This document shows, in pieces, positions 34,866-57,249 of a stretch of DNA of 64,000 nt (positions are counted from its first letter, which is position 1; the number at the start of each line of letters is the position of its first letter). The DNA lies in IMG/VR virus record IMGVR_UViG_3300009093_000036, positions 131,356-195,355 of that record; one strand, 5' to 3'. The notes below the pieces were generated by a model. The model saw only the letters and a list, made by a program, of their open reading frames with translations. It made no database searches and was not told where the DNA came from. Source of the stretch: a virus. Position numbers and translations under genes: made by a program.

Positions 34866-34945
34866 CTTCGTGCTCCTGTTGATGCAGGGGCCCAGGTCAG
34901 TGCCTAGGATAGCTCAGGATCCTGCAAGTAGGGAAGGAAACACAC

Positions 34946-35401
34946 ATGAACCATGCCAGGCTCCTCGATCTCGAAGTTGACGTCGTCACTCTGCGGCGTC
35001 GTCTTGATGCTCTGGAGGCCCGTCTCACCGGCTCTGTGCAGGACCTCAACGGGCCGCAGCCGTTGTTCGACTTGTACTCCCACCTGCTGCTGGACGGCCT
35101 AGAACCAAGCCCCGATGCTGTCGCTCTGCTGCGCACCTGTGTGATGTTGATGACGCCTCGTGCGTTGCTCGACCTCGCACGACTGACCGGCGACATGTTC
35201 GCGTGGAGGCCGTTCCTCTCCGCGCTCGACGTCATGCACACCCGTGGCTACGACGTCACAGAAGCGTCAGAGTGGCTCGTGAGCTCTGCGCAGGACCTCC
35301 TGCGAGCCCAAGGCCTCGGGATGCTGCGGCCCGAGGATGTCCTTCGTTCACCCATGGGACCGATCGCTACGATGAAGCGGATCGCCCTATCAGGAAGGTG
35401 A
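34946..35401 (+). CDS. hypothetical protein
   Basis: 151-aa ORF, AAGGA SD. Confidence 0.6.
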   Translation: MNHARLLDLEVDVVTLRRRLDALEARLTGSVQDLNGPQPLFDLYSHLLLDGLEPSPDAVALLRTCVMLMTPRALLDLARLTGDMFAWRPFLSALDVMHTRGYDVTEASEWLVSSAQDLLRAQGLGMLRPEDVLRSPMGPIATMKRIALSGR

Positions 35402-35402
35402 A
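35387..35402 (+). promoter_or_regulatory. CTATNAG-class putative promoter (CTATCAGGAAGGTGAA)
   Basis: 28 nt before the gyrB ATG. Confidence 0.6.
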
Positions 35403-35414
35403 GGGATCACTTCT

Positions 35415-37943: not shown

Positions 37944-39734
37944 CTACGTGTTGTTGAAGCCGTCGCCCGGATCGCCGTACGAGACGGGGATGTCCCCGTC
38001 GTAGGCGTCATCGCTGACGAAGCCGGCGAGCCGCGACTCTTCCTCCTCCTTGAACGGAGCGATGATGTCGGGCCGCTTGTGCTCCAGCATCGAGGCGAGG
38101 AGGCAGTACAGCGAGGCGTGGAACGAATCGTCGGTCTTCCCCTTCGGCTTGTCGTACTTGATCATGCGGAGGTTCTCGGAGTCCTCGGCATGGATGTTCA
38201 AGATGTCCTCGCCGTACGGACGCTCGATGGACGACCACTTCGGAAGGCGCACCTTCCGGCGCTTCAGCGCAACGAACATGTCCGACATCAGCGGCGTACG
38301 GAACGCGATGGTTCGGTGCAGGGTGCGGACGTACTTCAGCTTCATGTTCAGACGCGGGGCGTACTCGAACGGGAAGATGCGGTGCATGCCGAACCGAGAG
38401 AGCAGCCGCTTGTTCTGGTAGAAGCCGAAGCCGAAGTCGGTGCCGACGTACTTCGGACGGAACTTCTGGATGAGAGCTTCGATCTCATCCATCTGAGCGA
38501 GCGGGTCGGTCAGCGGGCCCGTGAAGCGCATCATGAAGAAGATCTGGAACGCCGCATCATCACGGCAGTAGGCGCCCATGGTGAGGACGGTGAAGGCCCT
38601 CTCGCCGCTGCCCCAGTCGATGCCGAAGAACGTGGTGTTGTTCTGCGCGATCTTGTACGCGACCTCCAGGTTGTTCTCGATCTTCGGCTCGCAGGCCTGG
38701 ATGAGCTCCAGCTTGGAGATCGGCTTCGAGGCGGAGTCGTACGAGATCGCGAGGACCTCGTTCATGAACTGCGCCGTGGGGTAGCGCTCGCGGGCGGCGA
38801 GAATCTCCTTCCACTTCTTCGGAGACTTCCAGAACCAGGGCACCATCAGACGGCAGACGCGGTAGCCCTCGAAGGTGATGCGCTCGTTGTCGAGCTTCTG
38901 CATCTCCACCCAGCGAGCGTACGGATGCTCGGGGTTGATGGGTTTGCCACAGCGATCACAGATGGGTCCTTCCTTGCCCAGGTTCTTCTCGCTGAGGATG
39001 TTCCAGTGCCACGTCGCCGGCATGTTCGGCAGGCCGTGGTGCTCGCACGGAATGCACCACTCGCTGGCGGTCGAGTTGTCCGCCCAGTAGTGGTGGATGT
39101 TGTTGTCCATGCTCTTGGGCGTGCCCGAGTACACGAACAAGGTGTCCTGGTGGTGGGACGTCGTCTCTTCGATGACGGGCATGGTCGTGGAGACCAAGTC
39201 CTGGATCTCGTCGAGGAAGAGGTCGTTCACGGACAGACCGCGGATACGATCGGCGGTGAGGAAGGCGTACCGGAGGTAGATCTTCGAGCCGTTCGCGAAG
39301 TGCTTCTCGAACAGGTTGTTCGTGAGAGCCTCGTGGGTCTGTGCCTTGATGAGCGGACTGATGTCGATGATCTCGTTCAGGCGGGTCTTCGAGAAGACGG
39401 CCGTCTGCATCGCAGAGGGAGAGACGAACAGCGACGTGTGCCCAGGCCGCATCCCGGCGCGGCCGAAGATGCGGTTGCCGATCGTCGTGCTCTTCTCGGT
39501 CTGACGAGACGTGAAGAGCAGCACCTTGCGGGCCGGCGTGTCGTAGATGCGCTTGAGGTACTTGCGCTCGTCGAACACGAGAGGGACTGCTGTGCCGGTG
39601 TCACCGTCCTTGATGCGGATGAAGGCGGTCACCCACTCGGAGGTCAGGAGCTGGATCCTTCCGGTCTGGGCTTGCTTCGCGGAGCTCAGCTTGTACTCCA
39701 GGTCGTTGACACGTACACCGTACTCCACGGCCAT
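37944..39734 (-). CDS. terL: terminase large subunit
   Basis: TSRQTEKSTT (Walker A variant), RIRGLSVNDLFLDEIQD (Walker B), YSGTPK, GIDWG nuclease motif; start may extend to 39788. Confidence 0.9.
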   Translation of the reverse strand: MAVEYGVRVNDLEYKLSSAKQAQTGRIQLLTSEWVTAFIRIKDGDTGTAVPLVFDERKYLKRIYDTPARKVLLFTSRQTEKSTTIGNRIFGRAGMRPGHTSLFVSPSAMQTAVFSKTRLNEIIDISPLIKAQTHEALTNNLFEKHFANGSKIYLRYAFLTADRIRGLSVNDLFLDEIQDLVSTTMPVIEETTSHHQDTLFVYSGTPKSMDNNIHHYWADNSTASEWCIPCEHHGLPNMPATWHWNILSEKNLGKEGPICDRCGKPINPEHPYARWVEMQKLDNERITFEGYRVCRLMVPWFWKSPKKWKEILAARERYPTAQFMNEVLAISYDSASKPISKLELIQACEPKIENNLEVAYKIAQNNTTFFGIDWGSGERAFTVLTMGAYCRDDAAFQIFFMMRFTGPLTDPLAQMDEIEALIQKFRPKYVGTDFGFGFYQNKRLLSRFGMHRIFPFEYAPRLNMKLKYVRTLHRTIAFRTPLMSDMFVALKRRKVRLPKWSSIERPYGEDILNIHAEDSENLRMIKYDKPKGKTDDSFHASLYCLLASMLEHKRPDIIAPFKEEEESRLAGFVSDDAYDGDIPVSYGDPGDGFNNT

Positions 39735-40059
39735 GTCGCGATCTTCATCTTCCCCGAAGCCAACCCTGACAGCCATCTCTGGAACCATCCTGAAGGCGCT
39801 CGACGCCCTCGTCGTTCAATCTGCCACCACTACCGAAGGCGTGTGGCACCGCGTGTCGCGTTCACACTCTCCTGAGCTCAAGGATGCGCTCAGGAACTAC
39901 GTGAAGGCAAACAACAAGTACTACCACACGCGCTTCGAGGTCCACTTCCCGAAGCCCTTCGTGCTCCGGATCAGTGAGAGACCGGAGCCCCCTCGATCTG
40001 CTCCAGGAACCGCTGGACGAGCAGCCGAAGGTCCGGCGCGATCACGCCCTGCACGATGA
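39733..40059 (+). CDS. possible small antisense-oriented gene
   Basis: Codons 39790-39970 are strongly coding-like (AAG/AAC/TAC/TTC) and the same-register minus frame is closed. Confidence 0.35.
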   Translation: MSRSSSSPKPTLTAISGTILKALDALVVQSATTTEGVWHRVSRSHSPELKDALRNYVKANNKYYHTRFEVHFPKPFVLRISERPEPPRSAPGTAGRAAEGPARSRPAR

Positions 40060-41262: not shown

Positions 41263-43332
41263 TCACGATGCGGCGGCAGCCGACGGAGTCCCGTCGGTCT
41301 CTGCGGTGCGCATCGCGAGGCCCTTGAGGCCCTGGATGACCTCGTCGAGAGCACGAGCCGCACGAGCCGCCGCCGTCTCCGGAACCTCGGTCATGCCGAG
41401 GCGAGAGAACAGCGTGAGCTCGCAGACGGTGTTGAGCGCTCGATCGAGGTACGGCAGCTTGCCGACGTACACCCGCAGGTTCTCGGGGTTCAGGAAGTTC
41501 AGCGAGAGGACGCTGTCGACGGTCTGGATGTCGGGCAGCACCGAAGCCTCCTTGATGAGGTCCTTCCGGAGAGCGCGGACCTGGGCGACCTTCTCGGACG
41601 CCGTCTTCTCGATGTCGCGCATGAACGTCTCGACGGGGCGGACGTCGTGGACACCGATCACGTGCTCGGTGCGCATCGTGTGCGACGCGTGCTTGATGAT
41701 CTCGTGCGCCTTCAGCGGAGCCATGCCTGCCGCACAGAGCACGAAGACCGCATCGTCGATCGACGCGACCTTCGGGGCCGTCGCCTCCAAGCCGGGCAGC
41801 TTGTGGAAGGTGAGGTCGATGATGTCCCCGCCGTGACGCAGAGCGATGAACGGCTGCGCGAAGGCGGACGTCTTGACGGCTTCGAGGTCGTCGACGAGCG
41901 GGACGGCCGTCTCCTTGTTCAGCGCGAGGAAGCGCGCCGAAGCAGGCAGCGAGCACTCCTCGTCGCCCGGCATCATGTGCTGGAGGCCGGGCACGAGGCG
42001 GACGACGTGCGGCTGGCCGGTGAGGGTGGTGACGTGCACGAGGTCTCCGCCGTCCATCGAGGCTTCACGTCCCTCGATCTTGAACGGCACGGTCGCCTCG
42101 ATGCCGCTCGGGGTCACGACGTAGAAGAGACCCGAACCCGCCGGCTTGTCCTCGGGGAGCCCCATCGTGGCGTCGGAGATCTTCGCTCCGACGATCGAGC
42201 CCTGGACCGCAGCCGTCGCGCCGTTCGTGAACACGGCCATGGGGACACGAGTCCCATCGAAGTCGACGAGCGAGGGGAGAACCCAGCCCATCATCTCCTG
42301 GCCGTCGATGTTGCGGACACGATAGACGCCGGGCTTCTCGATGACCTCCCAGCGATCGTTCGTCGTGTCGAGCGGAGCCGTGTCCTTCGCGGGCTCGGAG
42401 ATCGTGACGGTCCCCTCCGTGTCGACCTTCTTCGTGATGTCGGGGCCGGCGAGCTTGAGCATCTGCCCGCGATCGATGTCGTCGCGGTTGATGCCGAAGA
42501 TCGAGCGCGACGCCGTCTTCATCCAGTACGTCCCACGGATCTCGTCCCAGCCGAACTGAGCGACTTCGACCGGAGCGTAGCTGGCCGCCTTGTCCATGAG
42601 GAGGTCGGCATCCCCTTCCGTGAGGAGGCGGCCGTCGAAGCTGGCCAAGTGCGACATGACCGCGAGGAAGGCCGGGTTCTGCTGAAGCTGCGGCTCCAGC
42701 CCCATCGACGAGATCTTCTCGCCGAGCGCATCCAGGTCGAGCTGCGACAGCGTCGGGGCGATGTGGTGGAGCAGCGACTCCTCGACGGCGAGGGAGGCCT
42801 GCTTCATGCCCGGGCCGTAGACGTAGCCGACGTTGTCTCCCGAGCCTGCGGAGAAGCCCGAGGTCGGGGAGTTCGAGGCGCGGCCCGGCGGGTAGAACAT
42901 CGAGTAGAGGCTCTGGTCTCCCGAGTCGTCCGTCATCATGTCGAACGTGTTCGGACGGAACAGCGCCTCACGAAGGCGGATGCCGTTGAGCGGGTACACC
43001 TTCTTGTCCTGCGTCATCACGATGTCGAGCGGGCAGAGCTCGGTGTTCTTGATGATGACGGGGATCAGCGCCTTCTTCGACGTCGGCTGCTCGTTGCCGG
43101 CCATCGAGAGTGCGGAGTCGGTCTGCCCCGAGATGACGATGACACCCAAGGCGAAGCCCTGTTCGTCATCCTGCCGCAGCATCACGACCTGCGGGTTGTA
43201 CTCGGAAGCCTCCGGCACCTGGCGGAAGAGCTCTTGGAGGATCTGCGGCCCCCACTTCGCCGCATCTTCGTCGAGCGGGACGGCAGCGACCTTGTCCTGG
43301 AAGATGGGGGCGACGTTCGTGAAGAGGTCCAT
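41263..43332 (-). CDS. large putative head-associated protein (KxA family)
   Basis: About 10 KxA/KxS motifs (KVAA, KQAS, KAAS, KTAS, KVAS, KHAS, KEAS); TAGGAT 7 nt before MDLF start. Confidence 0.7.
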   Translation of the reverse strand: MDLFTNVAPIFQDKVAAVPLDEDAAKWGPQILQELFRQVPEASEYNPQVVMLRQDDEQGFALGVIVISGQTDSALSMAGNEQPTSKKALIPVIIKNTELCPLDIVMTQDKKVYPLNGIRLREALFRPNTFDMMTDDSGDQSLYSMFYPPGRASNSPTSGFSAGSGDNVGYVYGPGMKQASLAVEESLLHHIAPTLSQLDLDALGEKISSMGLEPQLQQNPAFLAVMSHLASFDGRLLTEGDADLLMDKAASYAPVEVAQFGWDEIRGTYWMKTASRSIFGINRDDIDRGQMLKLAGPDITKKVDTEGTVTISEPAKDTAPLDTTNDRWEVIEKPGVYRVRNIDGQEMMGWVLPSLVDFDGTRVPMAVFTNGATAAVQGSIVGAKISDATMGLPEDKPAGSGLFYVVTPSGIEATVPFKIEGREASMDGGDLVHVTTLTGQPHVVRLVPGLQHMMPGDEECSLPASARFLALNKETAVPLVDDLEAVKTSAFAQPFIALRHGGDIIDLTFHKLPGLEATAPKVASIDDAVFVLCAAGMAPLKAHEIIKHASHTMRTEHVIGVHDVRPVETFMRDIEKTASEKVAQVRALRKDLIKEASVLPDIQTVDSVLSLNFLNPENLRVYVGKLPYLDRALNTVCELTLFSRLGMTEVPETAAARAARALDEVIQGLKGLAMRTAETDGTPSAAAAS

Positions 43333-43377
43333 GGTGTGCATCCTAACATCGAAAACGCGTTCAGGAGGAGAGCTGCT

Positions 43378-44478
43378 TCAGACGAGCTTGAACTTCTGAG
43401 CCAAGATCGAAGGAGGCGGAGGGCCCACACCCGCGGCGGTGCCAAGAGTGGTCAGGTACGTCATGAGCTGGTTGCCACAGACTCCAGGCTCGATCGCCGT
43501 AGCACCGCCAGCCAGGACGCTGCCATCGAGGATGACCTGGGCGCCCTTCACGCGGGCCTCGGAGCCACCCTCGACCTTCGCCTTGCCGTTGGCCTTCATG
43601 CTGAGGTCGCCATCGACCTGGACGTCGTAGTTGCCCTTCACGCGGAGGGAGTAGTTCGAGCCGACCATCTCGGTCTTCGTCCCGTCCATCTTCAAGAGCA
43701 TGCTGTAGGTGGCGTTCGTGACCTCGCCCGTCTCCGTGTTGATGCCCTGAGCGGCAACCATCACCTCCCAGACCTGTGCATCACCGCCGTCGGGTCCACG
43801 CAGCGGGAAGTGACGGACACGGAACGAAGCCTTCGCGTCCTGCGCGTACTCGTTCATGTGGAAGACGTACGAGGACGGGGCATTGCCTCCCGCATCGTTC
43901 TCTTGGCGCTCGGTCGTCCAGCGGATGTTCCCGCCGAACGTGTCCATCGTGTAGTTCTCGGCGAAGTCCCGCACGTAGTTGTTGATGGGGATGTAGATGC
44001 GTTGAGCGAGCTCGGTCGAGCCGAGCTGAAGGACACCACCACGCCGAAGCAAGATGAAGTTCTCGTCTCGCGTCGTCAGGAAGATGTCCCCGGGCTGCAT
44101 GTCGAGACGACGTCCGCGGAACGAGACGTCGGTCGTGCTGCCACCTGCGGACGTGCTGTGGGTGGGGGTGCCATCGTCGCTCTCGACGGACGACGGGATG
44201 GCGATGAAGCCGAGGATGAACGGCGGGGTTGTGTCGTTGCCTCGGAAGATCTGACAGCGAGCTCCTACCTCGGGGAGAAAGGAGATCCCCTCCCCGTTGT
44301 CGTTGTGGAAGTACGGCAGCGCGCACTGAAGGTCCTGGAAGGGCTTCTGCGTGTGACGGGTGACGACGTCCACGGTGAAGTTCGCCTTGTTGACGTTCGT
44401 CACCATCGCTTCCTCGATGACGGCGGGGAAGAACTCGGACGTCGAGGGTCCGCTTGCGCTGTAGTGACCGTCGCCCAT
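43378..44478 (-). CDS. baseplate central spike (gp5/GpV-like OB fold + beta-helix)
   Basis: N-terminal VTNVN...TVDV...GEGISFLPEVGARC OB pattern; C-terminal VKGNYDVQVDGDLSMKANG beta-repeat. Confidence 0.65.
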   Translation of the reverse strand: MGDGHYSASGPSTSEFFPAVIEEAMVTNVNKANFTVDVVTRHTQKPFQDLQCALPYFHNDNGEGISFLPEVGARCQIFRGNDTTPPFILGFIAIPSSVESDDGTPTHSTSAGGSTTDVSFRGRRLDMQPGDIFLTTRDENFILLRRGGVLQLGSTELAQRIYIPINNYVRDFAENYTMDTFGGNIRWTTERQENDAGGNAPSSYVFHMNEYAQDAKASFRVRHFPLRGPDGGDAQVWEVMVAAQGINTETGEVTNATYSMLLKMDGTKTEMVGSNYSLRVKGNYDVQVDGDLSMKANGKAKVEGGSEARVKGAQVILDGSVLAGGATAIEPGVCGNQLMTYLTTLGTAAGVGPPPPSILAQKFKLV

Positions 44479-47400
44479 CAGTACCTGGAGACCCCACGAC
44501 CGTTGCCGAACTCGGCCCCGTGCGCAAGCCCAGGGATCGGATGCAGGCCGTGGATGTCCGACTTCTCGTTGAGCGCCGCCGCCGTCATGATGTGCTCCTG
44601 GAGGCGGTTCGACTGAAGTCGCGCCATCCAGTCGTGCTGCTTCAGCGCCGTCGTGGTCTCCGTGGCCTTCAGCACCGGACGCACCTCGATCGGCTTTTGG
44701 TTCTTGAGCACGGTGCGGTTGATCTCCTCGACCACCGGGAACTGCATGTGGTCCCCGCGGAGGATGGTCGGGTGGTCACCGGGGTCCGAGACCTCGACGG
44801 TGCTCGTTGCGTTGCGCACCGTGAGCTCGACGTGACGACGAAGGACATCCTCCTTCTCGTAGATCTTGCCGATGCGATCGACCATGTGGTCCTGCGTCGC
44901 TTCGAGGCCACGGGTCTTGAGCAGCATGTTGAGGTTCGGGTCTCCCTCGGAGAGCTGCTCGCCACGCTGGAACTTGTAGCCGGCCTTCACGTGCGGAAGG
45001 AGGGGCTGACGAGAGTAGAGATCGACCTTGCTCTCTGCGAAGCGGACCTTGTGACCGCCCTGCGGCTGAGCCTCGACACGAGTGACGACGCCTGCACGCG
45101 GAGCGATGATGGCGTCGACCGGCGACCGCTTCGCGACACCGAACACGCGCTCGACGGTGCTGAACTCGTCGACGGCTCCACGCTGCGTCGGGACGATGCC
45201 CTGGTTGTGGGTCTGCTTCAGCATGAGCTGTGCAGCGCGCTCTCCGATCGCCTGCGCCGCCATGATGCCGACGTTGTCGCCCAAGTCGTAGTTGACGCCG
45301 GACGGGTGCTTGCCCATGCAGGTCGAGCACACCCCGTGCGGCATGCGGCACTTCAGGGGCGAGCGAACGAACAGGTTCGTGACGCCAGCCTTCGAGAAGG
45401 TCTGCTGGAGGCCGGGGGTGATGACGGTGCCCGCAGGGATCGTCTTGCCTCCGGCGGTGACGGGAGAGGCGAGATAGCGGTCGACGAGGTCGCGGTCGTT
45501 GACGCCCAGGCTGATGCCCGAGTGCGTCCCGCAATCCATCGCCGTGATGGGCGAGTCGATGTTGGACTGAATGAGCTCCTTCGTGAGGACGCCCGGGTCT
45601 CGAACTGCGTCGACCTTCTGGATCGTGCCCTTTCGTGCTCCAGCCGCCTGGAGGAAGTAGCCGCCAACGTCGACACCCTCGGAGAACGACCGCGTGATCG
45701 GAACCTTCGAGGCGTGGCCGAGGTGGTTCTCGACGAGCATCGGGGCGATCACGAGGCCCTGGAACTGCTCCTTCTTCGCCTTGATGCCCGAGGACCGCAT
45801 GTCCGAGATGTTCGTCGGATGCTTCTTGAAGTGCTCGTCGTAGGTCTCGTGCAGCTTCTTGGTGGCGTCCACCCAGATCTGCGTGCGCTCTGCGTCGGGC
45901 TTCCCTTCGGCACGGCTCTTCGCCGCCGCGATGATCTTCGCCCGCTCCACGCGCATCGGCTCCAGGTCCGAAAGACGAACGGTGTGTCCGCTCTCGAAAG
46001 CCATCTTGAAGCCGAGCTGGGTGAGGTTGCGGGTGAACGGCTCGAAGATCGCCGGGGCATGCTGTGCGGTCTGCCGAAGCATGTCCGTGACGAACTTCTT
46101 CGAGATGGGGGTATCGATGCCGGTGAGGACCTGCGCCTTGTACTGGTCGGGCACGATGTGAGAGATGCGGACACGGCCGAGCGTCGTGCGGTCCTTACCG
46201 ACCGTGATGACGTCGTCGAGGTTGATCTTGTTGTTGACGAACGCCGCCTCCGCTTCCTTCGCGGAAGCGAACGTCTGGTTGGTCTCCCGCTTCTTCAACG
46301 ACATGCGGTAGAGAGCGAGCATCGATTCGTTCGTCGGCGTGAACAGGACTTCACCCGTGCTCGCCGAGATGGAACGGTTCGACGGCAAGAGCTTGTAGGC
46401 CTCCTGCACCGCGGCATGCTGGATGGGGAGCATGAGCGCGACCGTGTCGCCGTCGATGTCTCCGCCGAGCGGGGGAAGAACGAGAGGACTCACCTTGATG
46501 GCTCGCGAGTCCGTGAGCTTCACCTTCTGACCGATGATGCCGTACTGATGGAGCACGGGGTCGCGCTTCATCAGGACCGGGCGCTCCTCGATCTCACGCC
46601 GCAGAGCAGCCTCGGCGACAGCGGAGCGCTTCGAGATCTCCTGCTGTGCCTGGATCGGGTTGTAGCCCATCTGCGTGAGGCGATGACCCACCATCGGTCG
46701 GAAGAGCTCGAACGCGATCTTCTTCGGTACGCCGATCTCGTCGGCCCCGAGCCCGGGGTCTGCGACGATCGTGGCTCGCGCCGTGTAGTCCTGCTTCTTG
46801 CCGATGACCTTGTCCTGGAAGAAGCCGTCCTTCGGCGAGTCGCCGGCGATCGTGTGCAGGATGCCGGGGAGGAAGCGGCCTCGCACCGGGTTGCCTTGGA
46901 AGTCGATGTCGAGAGCCTTCTTCCCCTTCGGGGTCGTACCGAAGAGGTTCTGGATCTCCTGGTAGAGATCTCCCTGTGCCTGAAGAAGACGGCGATCGGG
47001 GATGCCCTCCTTCTTCGAGGTCTCCAGGGACGAGTTCACCATGCCGAGCCGGCGATAGAGCTGATTCAGCGGATCGATGCGGTCCGTACCTTCCGCGCTC
47101 TCCTGGAAGGGGCGGTAGATCGGAGGCAGCACCGGCAGCAGCTTCATCGTGTACGCCTCGGAGGGCGTCTTGCCGTGCTCCTTCAGCGCACGCAGCGACT
47201 TGTACGCGAAGACCGCGTTGTTGAGCTCGCTGCTCTTCACCTTCGGGTCGTCGATCATCGACTTGTAGTGCTTCAGCCTCTGCTCGACATTGATCTTGGC
47301 GAGTCCGTCACGGATCGCCTCGCCTCCCGTCTTGCCGTTCAGCTTCATCTCACCCGAGACGATCTTCTGGATGTCCTGCTTCTGGATGCCCAGCAGCGAC

Positions 47401-50400
47401 GAGATCGAGTCCGCGAAGATCGGATTCGGCATCGGGGCCGCGAGCTCGATGTAGCCCCAGCGCTGCTTGTCCGGACCGAAGATGTGCGGATCGAAGATGC
47501 CTCCGCTCTTGGGCTTCATGTTCTTGGCGGCAACCGTCAGCGAAGGCTCGGTGACCTTGCCGCTCTTGCCACCCGCCCACTTCAGCGTCTCCTCGTCCGT
47601 CTGCGGGACGAGGCTGAGCATGCTGCCCTTTTTCTCCAGGTTCAGGCCCGTGGCCTGGAGAAGAGCACCGAACTTGTTGTAGACGTACGGAACCTGCGGA
47701 GGAGGGATCATCCGACCGTTCGCAAGAGCTGCCCACAGTGCCTCAGCCTGCGGCCGATCGGACTTGAGGGTCTGCATCTCGCCCAGGTTCTGACGGAGAC
47801 CAGCAGCGAGTGCGCCGTACACACCGAGAGAGCCCAGGCTCTGAGCGCCACTCTCACCACCGCCACGAGGGACGAGGTTCGTGTCGTACTGGATGTGCGG
47901 CATCCCGGTTGACTTGATGTAGGCGCCGCCGTGACGAACGTGCGTCTTCTTGTCGATCTGGTGTTCGAGCTGGAACACGTAGTGCGGGCCGACGGTCACC
48001 TCGCCGAGCTTGCGATCGGTCTTGGGGTCGACGAGGAGCTCAGTCTCCTTGAGGCCGTGGTGCTTCAGCTCGTCCTGGATCTTCTTCAGGTAGTCGGTCT
48101 GCCCGTCGAAGTTCTTGACGATGTAGGGCTGTCCCGTCTTCTCCGCGATCTTGCCCGCTGCCGTCTCCAGGATCTGCCCCGGGTTCATGCGGCCCGGCAC
48201 GGAGACCGGGTTGATCAGCATCTCGACGTGCTCGTGCTTGCCGTTCTTCGTGTAGTACGGCATCTCGTTGTCGGGCAGGATCTGCGTGACGATGCCCTTC
48301 GCGCTGTGGCGGGTCGAGACCTTCGAGCCAACGATCATCGGCTCCTTCGTCTTGACGTGAACGGTGATGTTCTTGCCCGAGCGAACGACACGCACGACCT
48401 CGCCGGTGTGCTCGTGGTCCCACGTCAGAGCCGCGTTCGTGTAGTCGAGGCGGCCCTTCTTGGTGAGCCGGTCGAGCATCTTCGCGTCGATCGTGTCGGG
48501 GTTCTTCTCTTCACGAAGAGCGAGAACGAGCGGGTCGCCGGGATGAACCGTGGCTCCCTCCTTCACAACACCATCATCACCGATGTGGTTGTACTGCGTG
48601 GGCTGGAAGGCCGTGCCCTTGTGCGCGACGAAGCGGTTCTTGTCGATGACGTGGTCATCCGTCACGTAGAACGACGGCTTCAGGAGATGCTCGGTCCCCA
48701 TCTTCTTGGCCGCGGACTCGGAGAGCGCGATGCCATCCTCGTGGTTCGCCCCGTTCGCCAAGTACGCGACGCGGACGTTCGTCCCCAGGGCGAGCGTCCC
48801 GTTCTTCGTGAAGGAGTGATCGGCAAGTACCTGACCTGTGTGAACTCGGTCGCCCACCTTCACGAGGGGCTTCGAGTTCAACATCGTCTTCTTTTCGTTG
48901 AGCGGGTAGTGGTCGTAGATGTGAACGGAGTGTTCATGACCCGCCGGATCTCGCACCACGATCTCGTCCGACAGCACCTTCGTCACGAAGCCCGCCACCG
49001 GGGCCTTGTGGGAGAGGAACGTCTCACCAATCCGCTTCTCGAACGAAGCCCCAGGTGCCGCCTGCACCTGCACGAGAGGAGCTTCGCGCCCCGTCAGTGA
49101 GAGCGCCTGCGCCATGTGACGCGCCGACATCGTCGTGCGTCCTGCTGCGTCGTTGCCCATGAACGGGACGAGGTTAGTCTCGGTGGAGAACACCTGCGTC
49201 GGAGAGATGAGTGCGTACTGCGCTTCCTTCAGCGGACGCTCTTCGATGTCGCCGTGCTGGTTCGAGACACGGACCTTCTCGTTGATGGCGCGCGGAACAC
49301 CGCCATGCCACGTGATCTGGTCGGGCAGCACCACGATCGACTTCGCTGCTTCCGCGGGTGTGAGCTCCTCGACCTTCCCCGTCTTGAGGTTGTAGAGCTT
49401 CGTGTACGGCTTGCGATCACGGACCACGATGCCGGACGTGAGGTGGGTGGTCGTGCCCGGGGAGCCCTCGGGGGTGAAGACGGGGTCGACGAAGCCGAGC
49501 TGAGAGGGATCCACGCTCGTGTTCGAGAGCGTGACCTGATGTTCGGACTTGATGCCTCCCGGGCCCATGATCGTCGTCTGGCTACGGTCGGCCAGCATCG
49601 ACACGGGGTTCGTCTGCTTCGGGGTCGAGGTCAGCCCCGTGATGCCGAAGACGTGGTTGATCGGCTTCTGGATGAGGTCCGGCATCACGATGTCGCGCAG
49701 CACCGACTGCGAGCCCGCAGTGAGCGCTTCCTGCGTCGACTTCTTGCCGAGGGACTTCAGGACACGACCGTGGATGTCGTTCTTCGAGGCATGCAGCCGC
49801 TCGATGAAGTGGTCCGCCGGCGTCCACAGCTCCTTGAACTCCAGGGAGTCGATGGGATCGGGCCGCGTACGCTCCGCGCTGACGTCGATGAGCTTGCCAC
49901 TCGCTCGAAGGAGCGCCTCTCCCGAGACCTGATCGAAGCCCTTCCCCAGCGTCGTCTTCGTGACGGCCGGATCCATCTTCGTCTCGCTGAAGTACTTCAC
50001 GATCGCAGCCGGCAGGTCGGTACCCGTCGGAACGTTCGCATCCTTCATCGCCGTGTAGAACGAGTTGAGGTCCTGCGAGTACCGGGACTTCTTCAAGTTG
50101 GCGTCGAAGTTCTTGTCGCCCCAGGCCTTCTTCATCTCGTCGTCGGTGATGCCCGTGGCCTTGAGGACCGAGTAGAGGGGGATCTTGCGGGCCCCCGTCT
50201 TCACGAAGAGGTAGCCGCTGCCAGGCTCCATCTGCACATCGAAGGGACGGCCCTTCGCGAGCTGGAACTGCGCCTCGAACTCTCCGGCCTTCTCGGTCGC
50301 TTTCACGTAGGCACCCGGACGGAGACGCCACTGGTTCGTGACCGACTTCTCCTGGCCACCGTGGATGAAGGTGTAGTGGCGCGTCAGCTTCGGGATGTCG

Positions 50401-50675
50401 GCGATCTTCATCCGACGACCGACCAAGGTCTTGCCGGCGCGATCGACCACCTCGACGTCAGCGACGACCGGCGCCGTGTACGACCGACCAGAGAGGCGGG
50501 CCTGCATCTGACCCTTGATGTCGTCGGTCCCGAGCGTGGAGTCCGACACCTCCAAGTTCTTCACCCGAACCTCGATCCCCGTCTTCGGGTCCGAGACCGG
50601 GAACGTGGCCTGGATCTCCGCGAGGAACCTCGACTTCAGGTCCTCGTACTGACGGTTCGGGTCGGTGTTCAGCAC
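44478..50675 (-). CDS. rpoBC: single-chain DNA-directed RNA polymerase, beta-beta' fusion
   Basis: beta motifs (QTNP..GPGG, TPEG, LVPFMGND, GSKVSTRHSAKG, NPVSVPGRMNPGQ, EMQTLKSD) then beta' motifs (GIFDPHIFGP, PVLPPIYRP, GKKQDYTAR, RDPVLH, GGDIDGD, RSPLKC..CSTC, AAQAIGE) in one frame. Confidence 0.95.
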   Translation of the reverse strand: MLNTDPNRQYEDLKSRFLAEIQATFPVSDPKTGIEVRVKNLEVSDSTLGTDDIKGQMQARLSGRSYTAPVVADVEVVDRAGKTLVGRRMKIADIPKLTRHYTFIHGGQEKSVTNQWRLRPGAYVKATEKAGEFEAQFQLAKGRPFDVQMEPGSGYLFVKTGARKIPLYSVLKATGITDDEMKKAWGDKNFDANLKKSRYSQDLNSFYTAMKDANVPTGTDLPAAIVKYFSETKMDPAVTKTTLGKGFDQVSGEALLRASGKLIDVSAERTRPDPIDSLEFKELWTPADHFIERLHASKNDIHGRVLKSLGKKSTQEALTAGSQSVLRDIVMPDLIQKPINHVFGITGLTSTPKQTNPVSMLADRSQTTIMGPGGIKSEHQVTLSNTSVDPSQLGFVDPVFTPEGSPGTTTHLTSGIVVRDRKPYTKLYNLKTGKVEELTPAEAAKSIVVLPDQITWHGGVPRAINEKVRVSNQHGDIEERPLKEAQYALISPTQVFSTETNLVPFMGNDAAGRTTMSARHMAQALSLTGREAPLVQVQAAPGASFEKRIGETFLSHKAPVAGFVTKVLSDEIVVRDPAGHEHSVHIYDHYPLNEKKTMLNSKPLVKVGDRVHTGQVLADHSFTKNGTLALGTNVRVAYLANGANHEDGIALSESAAKKMGTEHLLKPSFYVTDDHVIDKNRFVAHKGTAFQPTQYNHIGDDGVVKEGATVHPGDPLVLALREEKNPDTIDAKMLDRLTKKGRLDYTNAALTWDHEHTGEVVRVVRSGKNITVHVKTKEPMIVGSKVSTRHSAKGIVTQILPDNEMPYYTKNGKHEHVEMLINPVSVPGRMNPGQILETAAGKIAEKTGQPYIVKNFDGQTDYLKKIQDELKHHGLKETELLVDPKTDRKLGEVTVGPHYVFQLEHQIDKKTHVRHGGAYIKSTGMPHIQYDTNLVPRGGGESGAQSLGSLGVYGALAAGLRQNLGEMQTLKSDRPQAEALWAALANGRMIPPPQVPYVYNKFGALLQATGLNLEKKGSMLSLVPQTDEETLKWAGGKSGKVTEPSLTVAAKNMKPKSGGIFDPHIFGPDKQRWGYIELAAPMPNPIFADSISSLLGIQKQDIQKIVSGEMKLNGKTGGEAIRDGLAKINVEQRLKHYKSMIDDPKVKSSELNNAVFAYKSLRALKEHGKTPSEAYTMKLLPVLPPIYRPFQESAEGTDRIDPLNQLYRRLGMVNSSLETSKKEGIPDRRLLQAQGDLYQEIQNLFGTTPKGKKALDIDFQGNPVRGRFLPGILHTIAGDSPKDGFFQDKVIGKKQDYTARATIVADPGLGADEIGVPKKIAFELFRPMVGHRLTQMGYNPIQAQQEISKRSAVAEAALRREIEERPVLMKRDPVLHQYGIIGQKVKLTDSRAIKVSPLVLPPLGGDIDGDTVALMLPIQHAAVQEAYKLLPSNRSISASTGEVLFTPTNESMLALYRMSLKKRETNQTFASAKEAEAAFVNNKINLDDVITVGKDRTTLGRVRISHIVPDQYKAQVLTGIDTPISKKFVTDMLRQTAQHAPAIFEPFTRNLTQLGFKMAFESGHTVRLSDLEPMRVERAKIIAAAKSRAEGKPDAERTQIWVDATKKLHETYDEHFKKHPTNISDMRSSGIKAKKEQFQGLVIAPMLVENHLGHASKVPITRSFSEGVDVGGYFLQAAGARKGTIQKVDAVRDPGVLTKELIQSNIDSPITAMDCGTHSGISLGVNDRDLVDRYLASPVTAGGKTIPAGTVITPGLQQTFSKAGVTNLFVRSPLKCRMPHGVCSTCMGKHPSGVNYDLGDNVGIMAAQAIGERAAQLMLKQTHNQGIVPTQRGAVDEFSTVERVFGVAKRSPVDAIIAPRAGVVTRVEAQPQGGHKVRFAESKVDLYSRQPLLPHVKAGYKFQRGEQLSEGDPNLNMLLKTRGLEATQDHMVDRIGKIYEKEDVLRRHVELTVRNATSTVEVSDPGDHPTILRGDHMQFPVVEEINRTVLKNQKPIEVRPVLKATETTTALKQHDWMARLQSNRLQEHIMTAAALNEKSDIHGLHPIPGLAHGAEFGNGRGVSRY

Positions 50676-50681
50676 CGGGGA

Positions 50682-50687
50682 AGTCTA
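50682..50687 (-). promoter_or_regulatory. -10-like TAGACT 6 nt upstream of the RNAP GTG (leaderless class)
   Basis: TAGACT-TCCCCG-GTG with no SD. Confidence 0.55.
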
Positions 50688-50765
50688 CGCGCTGCCCTCG
50701 TAGTGGGTCAACGAACCCCGCGGAAATAGCCTCTCCGCAGACCTATCAACATGAAGGAGAGAGCC

Positions 50766-50888
50766 ATGCCCAACAAAGAAGACGAAGACGCCAGGGACAC
50801 CCTCACGCAGTACGAGGACTTCGTCCAAGAGGCGATCACCGAATCCATTCAGGAGAACGAGACGGATGTGGAGTCTGTTGCTGCTTAG
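50766..50888 (+). CDS. 40-aa highly acidic peptide
   Basis: Not in track; GAAGGAG SD; MPNKEDEDARDTLTQYEDFVQEAITESIQENETDVESVAA. Confidence 0.6.
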   Translation: MPNKEDEDARDTLTQYEDFVQEAITESIQENETDVESVAA

Positions 50889-50976
50889 CGTTGCGACCGG
50901 CTTCGTTCTCGGCCTTCACGCCTATCTGTCGATGCTCCTCGCGCGAGCACAGGCACAGGCGGCGGTGTCCGCATGA
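50866..50976 (+). CDS. 36-aa hydrophobic (single-TM) peptide
   Basis: Not in track; AGGAG upstream; MWSLLLLSVATGFVLGLHAYLSMLLARAQAQAAVSA; ATGA overlap with the next gene. Confidence 0.45.
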   Translation: MWSLLLLSVATGFVLGLHAYLSMLLARAQAQAAVSA

Positions 50977-51452
50977 GAAGAAAGCCCACCTACCATCCCA
51001 GAGTCATCGTGGAGGCACACGTGAGTGAGAACGACGGCGAGACGCCGCTTTGTGCGATCTGTAGCGAGCACGTCGGTGAACACACCGACGGGATGCTCAT
51101 GCTCCGAGGCCAGTTCTTCTACGTGAAGAACGAGGGCTACTCGATGTTCGTGCTCGACCCCGACACGAAGCTCCAGTTCATCGAGCTGCCGGACGCCCTC
51201 GGGCCCGGGCAGCCGCAGTTCGCGTTGGTGATCAACCCGACGACCCCCGAGCCGATTGTCCCGGCGCACGCCGAGTGCGTAACGGATGAGCTTTCGCTCG
51301 ATGACGACGATGACGACGATGTGCTCCCACCAGACGACCACCTCGATGAGCTGAGTGCCGAGATGCACGACGCCATGGAGCGCGACTTCGACCGCGAGCT
51401 CGAAGAAGCCGAAGTCGAGTGGAACAAAGACGACACCCTGACCTTGAGGTAG
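50973..51452 (+). CDS. Zn-finger protein with poly-acidic tail
   Basis: CAIC...HAEC; D-rich C-terminus. Confidence 0.65.
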   Translation: MRRKPTYHPRVIVEAHVSENDGETPLCAICSEHVGEHTDGMLMLRGQFFYVKNEGYSMFVLDPDTKLQFIELPDALGPGQPQFALVINPTTPEPIVPAHAECVTDELSLDDDDDDDVLPPDDHLDELSAEMHDAMERDFDRELEEAEVEWNKDDTLTLR

Positions 51453-51455
51453 ACG

Positions 51456-52604
51456 ATGCCGAAGTTCTCAGAAGCCAGACAGGAAGCTCTTCAAGAGCTG
51501 ACGGTGCAGTACAAGCACCGCTACCTCAGCATCCCGTGCCTGCTTGGAGGCGTCGGCCTCGGCAAGACCGAGATGGCTGCCGAGCTCGCCATCGAGATGG
51601 GTGAGAAGGTCATCGAGGACAGCCTCATCTTCGAGGCGATTCCCACAGGGGAAGCCTCCGACCCCACCGACACCGCCGGCATCCCGTGGGTCATCCCTGT
51701 GGAAGGGACCAACATCTCCAAGAAGGACTTCCGAGTCCTGTGGGCGCTGAACCGAGCCGCGTTCGATGCCTGCCACCGCCCGACGATGTTGCTCTTCGAC
51801 GACATCGACAAGGCCACGCCTATCGTCACGAACTCGCTGCTGCACCTCTTCGTGCACCGGCGGTTCAAGGACTTCGCCCTGCACGAGAAGTCGTTGATGA
51901 TGTGCGCGGGCAACCGCACCACCGATGACATTCATGCCAACGCGATGTCGGAGTCCCTCAAGACGCGTGTCACGGCCATCGAGGTGGAGGCCGACTTCGA
52001 CGACTTCTCGAAGTGGGCACTGAGCGTCGAGGAGGACAAGCCCTCTCGCATCCACCCTGTGCTTCTCGGGTTCTTGAACCACAAGCCCGAGCTCCTGCAC
52101 AAGCACGAGGAGAACGTCATCCGCTTCCCTACGCCTCGTGGCTACAGGGAGACCTCGCTGCACATGATGGAGTTCCCCGACCCGAAGACGTGGCTTCGCA
52201 CGCTGACGCGAAAGATCGGCCAGGGTGCCGCGAACGACTTCTGGGCCTGGTACACCGTCCTCTCGAAGGTGGACGTCGACTACATCCTCGAACACGGGAC
52301 GTTCAAGGAGCCCATCAAGAGCGACAACCCGAAGACTCCTCTGGAGGTCGTGCAGAAGATGGCGGAGTTCGCTGCCGTCTTCGCAGTCACGGACCGCCTC
52401 AACAAGAAGATGTCTCCGAAGTACTCGGGGCTCGAAACCTTCATCGCGTCCCTGGCTCCGGAGCTGCGCGTCGCGTTCCTCCTTCAGATGCGGGATGGGA
52501 CGAAGCGCGAGTTCAGGAACTTCTACCCGAAAGCGTCAGGCAAGATCATGGGCACCATCATCAAGGACGCCAGCTCTTCGCCGGCGAACGGAACTGGGCC
52601 GTGA
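51456..52604 (+). CDS. MoxR-like AAA+ ATPase
   Basis: GGVGLGKT Walker A, LLFDDIDKA Walker B, AGNR sensor, SLKTR. Confidence 0.85.
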   Translation: MPKFSEARQEALQELTVQYKHRYLSIPCLLGGVGLGKTEMAAELAIEMGEKVIEDSLIFEAIPTGEASDPTDTAGIPWVIPVEGTNISKKDFRVLWALNRAAFDACHRPTMLLFDDIDKATPIVTNSLLHLFVHRRFKDFALHEKSLMMCAGNRTTDDIHANAMSESLKTRVTAIEVEADFDDFSKWALSVEEDKPSRIHPVLLGFLNHKPELLHKHEENVIRFPTPRGYRETSLHMMEFPDPKTWLRTLTRKIGQGAANDFWAWYTVLSKVDVDYILEHGTFKEPIKSDNPKTPLEVVQKMAEFAAVFAVTDRLNKKMSPKYSGLETFIASLAPELRVAFLLQMRDGTKREFRNFYPKASGKIMGTIIKDASSSPANGTGP

Positions 52605-55263: not shown

Positions 55264-55292
55264 GAGGAGGGGCCGCAAGCCCCTCTTCTTTT
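55264..55292 (+). terminator. intrinsic terminator
   Basis: GAGGAGGGGC-5nt-GCCCCTCTTC-TTTT. Confidence 0.85.
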
Positions 55293-57249
55293 ACCCGCCA
55301 GCTCCGCCGAGGGAGAGACGGCGGGGCGGCTTCTGGCTCGGCAGCGGTCGCATGTCCACGCCACCAGTGTCGGGGGATGCCGACTGACCGACGATGTGCT
55401 GCTTCACGAGCTCGGCGAGCTCGGGCTGCGTCTGAGCGAGGTGATCGATCGACTGCGTCTGCATGTCGCGCGGCTGCGCCGAGATCTGATTCGCCAAGCC
55501 CGCGGCCACCTGATCGAGCGGAATGCCCGTCGGAGCGGCCGTCAGTCCCGAGCCCATCTCGTCGGAGAACGGGGTCGAAGGTGCGGCCCCCATCCCACCA
55601 CCGGCAGCTCCAGCCGCTGCACCCGGGTTGTTGGGATCCATGGGCATCGGCATCAGGCCCTTCTGCTGCAACTTCAACTGGGCCTCCGCCATGATCTCCT
55701 GCGCCTGCGCCTGGTAGCGCGCCTGCACGACCATCGCCTCGCCCTGGATCTCGGCCTGGATGAGCTGCTGCTTCTTCAGCGCCTCGGCACGGATCTGCGT
55801 CTCCTTCACCTGGAGGCTCGACTCGTCCTCGACGTTGAAGTCCATCATCGCGAGCAGCGACGTGTCGCTGATCTTCGACTGCTGGTTCATCGACGCCGCG
55901 AGCGCCATGCGCTGAAGGTCGTCCGCCATCTTGAACGGCTTGAAGCGAGCAGTCGGAACGCTCCAGTTCAAGTAGTGGCCGGTGCGACCCATGAACCAGT
56001 GGATGAGCCGGTAGTGGTTCTGCACGTTCGACAAGAAGAAGTTCTCGACCATACGCATCGAGACCGACGTTCCTGCGTACGTCCCCTGACCGAAGACGAG
56101 GTCGGACGGGAAGCCCATGCCGATCGCGATGAGCTCCGCGATCATGCGGATCTCCTGCATCAGCAGCAGAGCCTTGCCGTTCTCTCCGATGATCTGATGG
56201 CCGAGCGGGAACGGCAGGATGCCGTAGTAGCTGGGGTCGACGCGCTGACGAGCGAGCTCGCGCTGGATGTGCCCACGCCAGTCGGCGAGGTTGATCGTGC
56301 TGAACGGATCGGCGCCGGCGGTCGCCGGCTGCGGGTACAAGAAGATCTGCGGGACCATGTGCGTGAGCAACACGGTCTCCTGGGACTTCTTCATCAACTG
56401 CATGTAGAAGGCGTCCTTCATGACCGGCATGAGGAGCGGAACACCCCAGCCCTGGTCCATGCTGGACAGCGCCGGACGGCGCATGTGGAACACCTCGCGC
56501 TTGTCGAAGACGAGGGAGCGCTTCTCCTTGACGGCCTGGAGGAAGAGCTGAGGAGTCGTGGCGATGATGTCCTTGCGACCCATCGCCACGAGGCTGCGGA
56601 ACTTCGCAGAGAGGTCGAGGGAGTAGTCCATCCTCCCGGTCGCCTCGTTGTGGAAGATCGAGACGTTCTCCGGGTTCCAGCGGACCATGTTGATCTCGCT
56701 GGGCTTCGGCTGGTAGTCGTCCGTGGCGTTCGCGAAGTCGCTCTGTCCGCACTTCGGGCACGTCAGGTAGAAGCGATGATCGGTGTACCGCCAGTGCCGG
56801 CGGAAGTTGATCGCATCGATGCGGGCGTTGCACGCCGAGCAGATGATCAACTTGCGGAAAGGGAACGAGGGGGAGATCAGCGCGTTGCCGTACACGTAGT
56901 AGTCGAGGTTCACCTCGAACTGGTGCATGCGGTAGTTGAGGTCTCCCAGCATCAGGTTCCGCCAACGATCGACGACGCCGCGATCCTTGTGCGTGAAGAT
57001 GATGTCGGTGATCGGGTACTCGGCCGCCTTCGTGCAGATGGCGTTGATGACGCCGTGCGTGAGGAAGTAGTAACGGCAGAAGCCGAAGAGGTTGCGGACC
57101 GTCTGCGGCGTGTACGTCGACGCCTGATCGAAGAACGGGTTCGCGAACGACTGATACTGCCGCCCGAGGATGCTGGTCCGGTTAAAGGAACCGCCGAGAG
57201 AAGCTCCGCGGTTCTCCGCCAGCCCCATGGGTCCGCCGAAGAACGTCAT
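55291..57249 (-). CDS. portal protein with Zn-ribbon insertion
   Basis: DYYVYGNA, RWNPENV, VFHMRR...GWGVPLL, ELIAIGMGFP portal-like motifs; Q/M/P-rich tail; CSAC...CPKC insert. Confidence 0.8.
   Translation of the reverse strand: MTFFGGPMGLAENRGASLGGSFNRTSILGRQYQSFANPFFDQASTYTPQTVRNLFGFCRYYFLTHGVINAICTKAAEYPITDIIFTHKDRGVVDRWRNLMLGDLNYRMHQFEVNLDYYVYGNALISPSFPFRKLIICSACNARIDAINFRRHWRYTDHRFYLTCPKCGQSDFANATDDYQPKPSEINMVRWNPENVSIFHNEATGRMDYSLDLSAKFRSLVAMGRKDIIATTPQLFLQAVKEKRSLVFDKREVFHMRRPALSSMDQGWGVPLLMPVMKDAFYMQLMKKSQETVLLTHMVPQIFLYPQPATAGADPFSTINLADWRGHIQRELARQRVDPSYYGILPFPLGHQIIGENGKALLLMQEIRMIAELIAIGMGFPSDLVFGQGTYAGTSVSMRMVENFFLSNVQNHYRLIHWFMGRTGHYLNWSVPTARFKPFKMADDLQRMALAASMNQQSKISDTSLLAMMDFNVEDESSLQVKETQIRAEALKKQQLIQAEIQGEAMVVQARYQAQAQEIMAEAQLKLQQKGLMPMPMDPNNPGAAAGAAGGGMGAAPSTPFSDEMGSGLTAAPTGIPLDQVAAGLANQISAQPRDMQTQSIDHLAQTQPELAELVKQHIVGQSASPDTGGVDMRPLPSQKPPRRLSLGGAGG

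Follow-up and report, generated by a model that had tools for sequence, protein, structure and literature searches.

Assembly of bacterial RNA polymerase (RNAP) is thought to depend on a dimer of alpha subunits, and to our knowledge sigma-dependent initiation has been studied only on five-subunit cores. Phage RNAPs of the multisubunit type appear as fragmented and sigma-less enzymes in the available portions of reviews and comparative papers, where a single-chain architecture goes unmentioned. The closest described system is that of Salmonella phage Arash, whose genes are annotated simply as beta and beta' subunits, with no mention of a fusion in the accessible part of the paper (PMC10585845). 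A full-text literature search returned no account of a phage RNAP with beta and beta' completely fused, and only the Arash paper annotates homologues. Here, we describe such a fused gene in a stretch of 64,000 nucleotides (nt), referred to as the window, which spans positions 131,356 to 195,355 of the IMG/VR record IMGVR_UViG_3300009093_000036 and forms the final 64 kb of this 195,355-bp genome of an uncultured soil phage (G000; completeness 100% by CheckV). Coordinates below are those of the window unless marked G000, and the gene comprises the following parts:

44478..50675, minus strand: fused beta-beta' RNAP gene (P0001), a single open reading frame (ORF) of 2065 amino acids (aa) with a GTG start and no internal stops
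47622..50675, minus strand: beta module, aa 1-1018, with lobes, fork, flap, double-psi barrel and both active-site lysines (GSKVSTRHSAKG), from the alignment to E. coli beta
44481..47621, minus strand: beta' module, aa 1019-2065, with clamp helices, catalytic barrel, bridge helix, trigger loop and second zinc site
47586..47648, minus strand: beta/beta' junction, aa 1010-1030, with GLNLEKKGS followed directly by MLSLVPQTDEE, placed by alignment and conserved family-wide, including Arash and Vibrio phage D69
46446..46466, minus strand: catalytic magnesium-binding motif GGDIDGD, aa 1404-1410 (canonical NADFDGD), all three Asp invariant in the family
47466..47471, minus strand: point at which 33 aa, corresponding to E. 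coli beta' 66-98 with the zinc-binding domain and its four Cys, have been lost
46176..46199, minus strand: position at which relatives are split, aa ~1493-1500, unbroken in the window protein

The frame runs through the equivalents of both large bacterial subunits. Within this one frame, Pfam detects Rpb2_3 (aa 353-414) and Rpb2_6 (558-921) and, beyond them, Rpb1_1, Rpb1_2 and Rpb1_5 (1173-1968), the NCBIfam rpoB and rpoC models cover aa 323-1014 and 1110-2040, respectively, and sequence searches of the PDB matched aa 61-1015 to nearly an entire cyanobacterial beta chain and aa 1111-2064 to nearly an entire Clostridium beta' chain. A MAFFT alignment to the E. coli subunits places the C-terminus of beta (...GINIELEDE) on ...GLNLEKKGS (aa 1010-1018), and beta' begins directly after it, residues 1-18 of E. 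coli beta' having no counterpart in the fused protein. The N-terminus of the ORF agrees with the family consensus. The initial annotation, made from the letters and ORFs of the window, had claimed an in-frame fusion of RpoB to RpoC and a bacterial-like enzyme; the ORF, all of these searches and the E. coli alignment confirm the first claim, and the domain order (beta, then beta') and intact catalytic motifs support the second.

The residues of the Mg triad in GGDIDGD (D1406, D1408 and D1410) are invariant in family alignments of 14 and 30 sequences, and the canonical form NADFDGD is present in more distant members. The active-site lysine motif GSKVSTRHSAKG aligns to GDKMAGRHGNKG, which holds K1065 and K1073 of E. 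coli, and the corresponding K785 and K793 are likewise invariant in the family. The bridge helix and the trigger loop (..LKQTH, ending in His) align with those of E. coli. The same alignment shows that the second zinc site of beta' still has its four Cys and that two structures to which sigma docks in bacteria, the clamp helices of beta' and the flap tip of beta, have also been kept. Structure prediction had been proposed as a check with the initial annotation. When the two halves were modelled separately with AlphaFold2, each from a 30-sequence family alignment, both folded confidently (mean predicted local distance difference test, 83.5 for the beta' half and 83.2 for the beta half) and superposed in Foldseek on whole bacterial chains, with template-modelling scores of 0.81-0.86 for beta' and 0.74-0.79 for beta. 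The protein is 684 aa shorter than E. coli beta and beta' together (1342+1407-2065), which agrees with the shortfall of ~680 aa that had led to its being called minimal. The shortfall is real, but the term overstates it: 457 of the 684 residues belong to inserts of the E. coli lineage (beta i4, 117 aa; i9, 100; i11, 54; beta' SI3, 186), which S. aureus also lacks, and the deletions relative to both bacteria amount to only ~125 aa, namely the first 18-19 residues of each module and beta' 66-98, 127-151, 554-569 and 664-676. Since so little is lost relative to both, the core is essentially complete. Judged from the alignments, its distinctive loss is the beta' zinc-binding domain, the deletion of which is common to the whole family, including Arash and D69. 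The likeliest reading of the motifs and models is that the ORF encodes a working, bacterial-type two-barrel core in one polypeptide. The positions equivalent to Q513, F514, D516, H526, R529 and S531 of E. coli beta, which are the main rifampicin contacts, are all substituted in the alignment; we therefore predict that transcription by the phage enzyme is insensitive to rifampicin, which would offer a simple experimental handle.

Inteins are abundant in relatives of the gene, whose proteins reach 4739 aa with up to four inserts, and the window copy is intein-free. Numbered on the window protein, the insertions fall at positions ~405, ~640, ~787-825, ~972, ~1070, ~1410 and ~1823 (relatives P0027-P0296). 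DxDGD is the main hot spot, used in more than 30 clusters; the others are the lysine motif of beta, TPEG, NHED and the His of the trigger loop. Insertion at exactly the catalytic motifs is expected where active-site segments are indispensable.

The fused layout defines a large family. A word-indexed search yielded over 100 clusters with lengths of 2040-2150 aa and identities of 37-87%, many of them on contigs of 160-198 kb, and in an exhaustive HMMER search with the beta' half the best 150 representatives at 50% identity (E <= 1e-132) were all of the fused type or fragments thereof. In IMG/VR, ~50 of 79 loci have one open frame spanning query residues 1-2057, and ~10 relatives are split into a gene for beta plus the N-terminal part of beta' (beta-beta'N) and one for the C-terminal part (beta'C), at aa ~1493-1500. 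Hundreds of independent metagenomic contigs, ranging in identity between 87% and ~25%, carry the intact frame, and the fusion is therefore not an assembly artefact, which the initial annotation had named as one of two outcomes that would undo its claim. An artefact or pseudogene is ruled out by the identical frame and the conserved catalytic residues across these contigs. For the beta' region, a quick IQ-TREE search (LG+C20, 42 rows, 1030 columns) included eight bacteria from about five phyla (Gammaproteobacteria, Desulfobacterota, Myxococcota, Chloroflexota and Firmicutes). The bacteria were monophyletic (support 100), and the fused and split phage proteins lay together on one side of a branch with support of 99. 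Thus, in this beta' tree, the family falls outside the sampled bacterial clade rather than within a host clade. The split forms make up a single clade (support 99) nested among the fused forms, indicating that full fusion is ancestral and the split derived.

The scores of the protein also set it apart from cellular genes. It reaches 392 bits on the NCBIfam rpoC model TIGR02386 against a cut-off of 963.5 bits, and 307.6 bits on rpoB (TIGR02013 and NF001616 tested) against a cut-off of 896 bits, so that by score, as well as by the absent zinc-binding domain, it does not belong with the cellular rpoB and rpoC orthologues. Among 185,579 species genomes, matches to the fused family occurred only on six phage-like contigs binned into metagenome-assembled genomes (MAGs), and none occurred in isolate bacterial genomes. 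Five bacterial MAGs each hold a genuine rpoC scoring 1140-1500 bits on TIGR02386, as opposed to 340-510 bits for the phage copies. The separate branch and the scores far below the cut-offs argue that the gene is not a captured host gene, and recent capture in particular is ruled out by these scores, the family's own clade and its absence from isolate genomes. That the locus might be an artefact, a pseudogene or a recently captured host rpoBC with no dedicated phage role is a general possibility for any metagenomic contig and has nothing else in its favor; given the breadth of the intact frame, the separate clade and the absence from isolate bacteria, we regard it as extremely improbable. The gene is a real, intact and family-wide single-chain beta-beta' RNAP of a separate viral lineage. 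Two side observations concern its relatives. The six binned contigs (L008-L013, 91-174 kb) are assigned to Desulfatibacillum, Myxococcales, Anaerolineales and even Thermoplasmatales, assignments that are probably binning errors rather than evidence of hosts. In addition, two relatives of low GC content (35-36%) carry in-frame TGA codons in an otherwise continuous RNAP frame (L050:7039, L050:8851 and L074:10261), which suggests that TGA is recoded in these phages.

A bacterial core consists of alpha2-beta-beta'-omega, and the genes for the smaller subunits could not be found in this phage. Searches for alpha (PF01000) and omega (PF01192) were negative throughout the 195-kb genome and in 16 related near-complete genomes, with positive controls in 14 of 14 cases. 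No second beta/beta' locus was detected in the 195-kb genome; a T7-type RNAP was not detected there either, a weak negative because the PF00940 control gave no match anywhere. The absence of alpha and omega across the family makes it plausible, from gene content, that the fused RNAP is independent of alpha. The initial annotation had noted that no alpha, omega or sigma gene lies in the window, which is correct, and had considered the enzyme possibly independent of both alpha and sigma. Independence from sigma is not supported, since the genome-wide search for accessory subunits that it recommended recovered a sigma-70-family factor. The genome also encodes a SNF2-family ATPase. The sole sigma-like gene lies ~96 kb before the start of the window:

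G000 ~34,875-35,663, minus strand: sigma-70-family protein P0122, 262 aa, homologue of Arash gp10 (E 1.3e-11)

A profile of the P0122 family (22 sequences) matched RpoD/SigA structures with an E-value of 9e-11 over sigma-70 residues 411-599, i.e., regions 2.4-4.2, and among these 22 homologues Pfam recognized sigma region 3 in 10 sequences and region 4 in 7. The sigma gene block is collinear with Arash gp6-gp8-gp10-gp13, and sigma is present, in one copy each, in 15 of the 16 related genomes. The genome thus encodes the sigma-70-family component of a holoenzyme, and we infer that P0122 pairs with the fused RNAP. Just downstream of sigma lies the gene for the SNF2-family ATPase (793 aa), which is 40% identical to Arash gp217 and has an N-terminal extension of ~300 aa that is absent from gp217. 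By coordinates, SNF2 homologues sit directly beside the RNAP gene in two relatives (G013 and G019) and near the RNAP locus in two others (G008 and G017). A role for SNF2 as a universal partner was rejected, as it was detected in only 7 of the 16 relatives, a count in which long queries can miss matches. The sigma and SNF2 genes belong to an apparent operon (G000:C1:32132-36014) composed of a CCTATCAG site, a 110-aa ORF, sigma, a 73-aa ORF and the SNF2 ATPase.

It is conceivable that the fused chain is only a catalytic core, completed in the cell by the alpha dimer, omega and/or sigma of the host, with the phage sigma serving host RNAP. The Helicobacter and Wolbachia fusions and bacterial core assembly are established to need alpha, both modules of the phage protein are near-complete bacterial folds, and phage sigma factors that retarget host RNAP are common (PMC7824862). 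Against this stand the identity of only ~21-26% to any bacterial beta or beta' and the great diversity of the apparent hosts, which makes a conserved interface with host alpha unlikely. Moreover, the phiKZ and AR9 RNAPs work without alpha or omega (PMC7598289), 15 of 16 genomes with the RNAP also have sigma, and the sigma gene of Cobetia phage Carin-5 directly precedes its beta'-beta genes. We therefore consider completion by host subunits quite unlikely.

The neighborhood of the gene links it to the phage particle, as do its cultured relatives. The neighboring particle genes and a conserved companion are:

55291..57249, minus strand: portal protein, homologue of Arash gp204 (E 1.6e-64), upstream of the RNAP gene
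43378..44478, minus strand: 366-aa gene with weak baseplate-hub/gp5-like matches, its start overlapping the RNAP stop; directly downstream in 37 related loci
41263..43341, minus strand: conserved 692-aa gene of unknown function that follows in the operon; present at 40 related loci
37944..39788, minus strand: large terminase, closing the minus-strand block that includes the RNAP gene

The block reads RNAP, the 366-aa, 692-aa, 299-aa and 130-aa genes and then the large terminase, and the order portal - RNAP - hub-like gene - 692-aa gene - ... - terminase recurs in 37-45 related loci, with the portal gene directly upstream of the RNAP gene in most relatives. The placement of the RNAP inside a virion gene cluster, as first proposed, is supported by this linkage. 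The overlap of its stop with the next start, described initially as a baseplate-spike start, is likewise present (TGATG at 44478), but the "baseplate-spike" label derives only from weak PHROG matches (E 6e-5 and 4e-4, on a stretch of 50-60 aa). Between portal and RNAP, a cassette on the plus strand (~50767-55263) holds a small ORF, a 159-aa ORF, a 382-aa AAA ATPase and a 642-aa ORF.

A megablast search of the locus against cultured phages gave no match. In contrast to the initial overview of relatives, which had missed all cultured homologues, a tblastn search of 50,697 phage records identified four true relatives, Arash and the Vibrio phages D69, D148 and D181, and no others. These phages have a gene of 1525-1527 aa, comprising beta and the N-terminal half of beta', and a separate beta'C gene of 606-609 aa; the cut, at aa ~1493, is near the division of cyanobacterial rpoC1 and rpoC2. 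In D181 and D148, a homing endonuclease is annotated within the region spanning the two genes, a possible sign that the split arose through invasion by a mobile element. In the virion proteome of Arash, Gp206 (the larger RNAP protein) gave the most spectra of any protein (3516, against 1333 for the major capsid protein), and Gp216 (1210), the sigma factor Gp10 (467) and the helicase Gp217 (1148) were also detected (PMC10585845). Presence in the virion is thus known by mass spectrometry for Arash alone, and we infer that the window phage packages its enzyme as well.

Candidate promoter elements offer a view of how the phage genome might be read. A k-mer screen found 13 of 20 copies of CCTATCA within the 7.9% of the genome that is intergenic. 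CCTAT[CA]AG occurs 17 times against 2.7 expected in dinucleotide shuffles (maximum 6), and the extended form CTAT[CA]AG-N2-3-G[AG]TG occurs 15 times against 0.18 expected. Well-formed sites lie 4-45 nt before start codons in the orientation of the downstream genes, and they precede, for example, topoisomerase II and two operons, one with a DNA helicase gene and the other with sigma. The long structural blocks, including the RNAP operon, are free of the element. From this distribution, CCTAT[C/A]AG-N2-3-GATG is the best candidate for a promoter of the phage RNAP. The sites in the window are:

35387..35393, plus strand: CTAT[CA]AG-N2-3-G[AG]TG copy 21 nt before the topoisomerase II gene, one of seven in the window
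2780 (minus strand) and 4340, 6852, 10730, 37388 and 61662 (plus strand): starts of the other copies of CTAT[CA]AG-N2-3-G[AG]TG
50742..50749, plus strand: CCTATCAA, a variant of the CCTATCAG...GATG element that heads the plus-strand cassette and faces away from the RNAP gene
50682..50711, minus strand: sigma-70-like promoter match TTGACC-18-TAGACT, with its end 7 nt ahead of the GTG of the RNAP gene; a consensus match only

The RNAP start codon has no Shine-Dalgarno sequence and follows the sigma-70-like -10 match by 7 nt (50676-50711, minus strand); the RNAP transcript may be nearly leaderless.

Taken together, we consider it fairly probable that the window gene encodes a packaged, phage-sigma-dependent single-chain RNAP that starts phage transcription without alpha or omega. 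In this reading, the protein is the completely fused counterpart of the Arash enzyme, which comes as two proteins, gp206 (beta + beta'N) and gp216 (beta'C). Expressed together with the particle genes of the portal-to-terminase cluster, it would be packaged into the virion with the phage sigma-70-family factor and be delivered along with the genome. Inside the cell, it would initiate transcription of phage genes with no need of the host RNAP, possibly assisted by the phage SNF2 ATPase. The packaged holoenzyme would read non-structural genes by way of the CCTAT[C/A]AG-N2-3-GATG element, and host-type promoters would drive the late structural block, including the RNAP gene itself.

Several considerations weigh against this scheme. 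Fusion alone says nothing about alpha, because cellular beta-beta' fusions still use it, and the phage sigma could redirect host RNAP instead, as happens in many large phages that lack an RNAP (PMC7824862). Packaging is extrapolated from a relative at ~31% identity, whose 116 'virion' proteins include ribonucleotide reductases, and the Arash authors themselves caution that abundant intracellular enzymes might co-purify with particles (PMC10585845). SNF2 is missing from the matches in most relatives, as given above. The tree comes from a quick search with eight bacteria of about five phyla and carries long-branch warnings for other phage lineages. The CCTATCAG element is not enriched in 16 distant relatives at 37% identity or less; this is expected if sigma specificity drifts, and the CCTATCAG...GATG element is specific to the close clade. 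Finally, PHROG annotation of the genes behind the element is mostly uninformative, so the label 'non-structural/early' derives from few cases, namely topoisomerase II, one DNA helicase and the operon of sigma.

Some of these points bear on another explanation, in which the enzyme is an intracellular RNAP for middle or late transcription, like the non-virion RNAPs of phiKZ and AR9, and its position among particle genes reflects only late timing or genome history. The single RNAP locus per genome means that the enzyme cannot be assigned to one member of a virion/non-virion pair, the possible contamination of particles raised by the Arash authors could account for the spectra, and the sigma-70-like match ahead of the RNAP gene indicates that host RNAP may express it. 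Yet the Gp206 spectra exceed those of the major capsid protein, sigma and the SNF2 ATPase were likewise detected in Arash particles, and the linkage to portal, hub-like gene and terminase is family-wide, down to the stop/start overlap with the hub-like gene. On balance, a non-packaged enzyme seems unlikely, and the packaged, sigma-dependent RNAP remains our preferred reading.

In a large and diverse phage family, a near-complete beta/beta' fold is thus maintained within a single chain, alongside a sigma factor and in the absence of alpha and omega. The open possibility of independence from alpha and omega, raised by gene content, is the most interesting point. If active alone, the enzyme and its sigma would be the smallest natural sigma-dependent transcription machine and would show how alpha becomes dispensable; a self-sufficient enzyme would also be the simplest natural sigma-dependent RNAP, and a tractable model by way of cultured relatives. 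We put forward tentatively, as a proposition that could well fail, that this is so: one chain and the phage sigma, with no alpha or omega, delivered by the capsid and descended from an old viral lineage beside all bacterial RNAPs. How a 228-kDa multidomain enzyme might be packaged and passed through a tail is a further question. Arash and the Vibrio phages D69, D148 and D181, which are cultured but biochemically unstudied, make such questions testable.

Among known systems, the N4 virion RNAP is a single-subunit, T7-like enzyme of unrelated fold, and the crAss-like virion RNAP (gp66-type) is an extremely divergent two-barrel enzyme with no recognizable beta/beta' Pfam domains; both are functional analogies only, as very large single polypeptides that are packaged and ejected to transcribe early genes. 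The RpoBC fusions of Helicobacter and Wolbachia (NF007172 and NF011417) resemble the phage protein in their in-frame order, beta then beta', and in their very short junction, but they are orthologues of cellular genes, measure 2840-2890 aa and function together with alpha, omega and host sigma. On NF007172 and NF011417, the phage protein reaches only 395 and 336 bits, respectively, in 4-5 separate matched stretches, against cut-offs of 5372 and 4632 bits; its fusion is therefore an independent one in a separate lineage. Carin-5 (L108), the IMG/VR loci L080-L092 and the beta' of Rhizobium phage RHph_Y65 (L107) have similarly compact bacterial-type subunits, only 23-26% identical to the window protein, and branch outside the fused family in the beta' tree; this different lineage has separate genes in the order beta' (~900 aa) then beta (~1010 aa), with a sigma gene directly in front in Carin-5. 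The phiKZ and AR9 RNAPs are phage-encoded beta/beta' relatives without alpha or omega, and one of their sets travels in the virion to serve early transcription; they consist of 4-5 polypeptides, are much more divergent, form virion and non-virion paralogue sets and have no sigma (PMC7598289, PMC7824862), whereas the window phage has one chain, one locus and a sigma-70-family gene. Arash (OQ632216.1) is closest, with full-length homology (31.6% identity across aa 8-1493; E 1e-31 beyond that stretch), the same beta-beta' junction, the same loss of the zinc-binding domain and, in common with the window phage, portal linkage (gp204, the portal gene, then gp205 and gp206), a companion sigma (Gp10) and a SNF2 ATPase (Gp217). 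Its RNAP is made as Gp206 (1525 aa) and Gp216 (606 aa), the two beta' pieces being encoded 5 kb apart, whereas the window protein is a single chain that runs uncut through position ~1493. We judge that phage-encoded bacterial-type RNAPs are a known kind of enzyme and that the fully fused layout, found in hundreds of related phages, is new.

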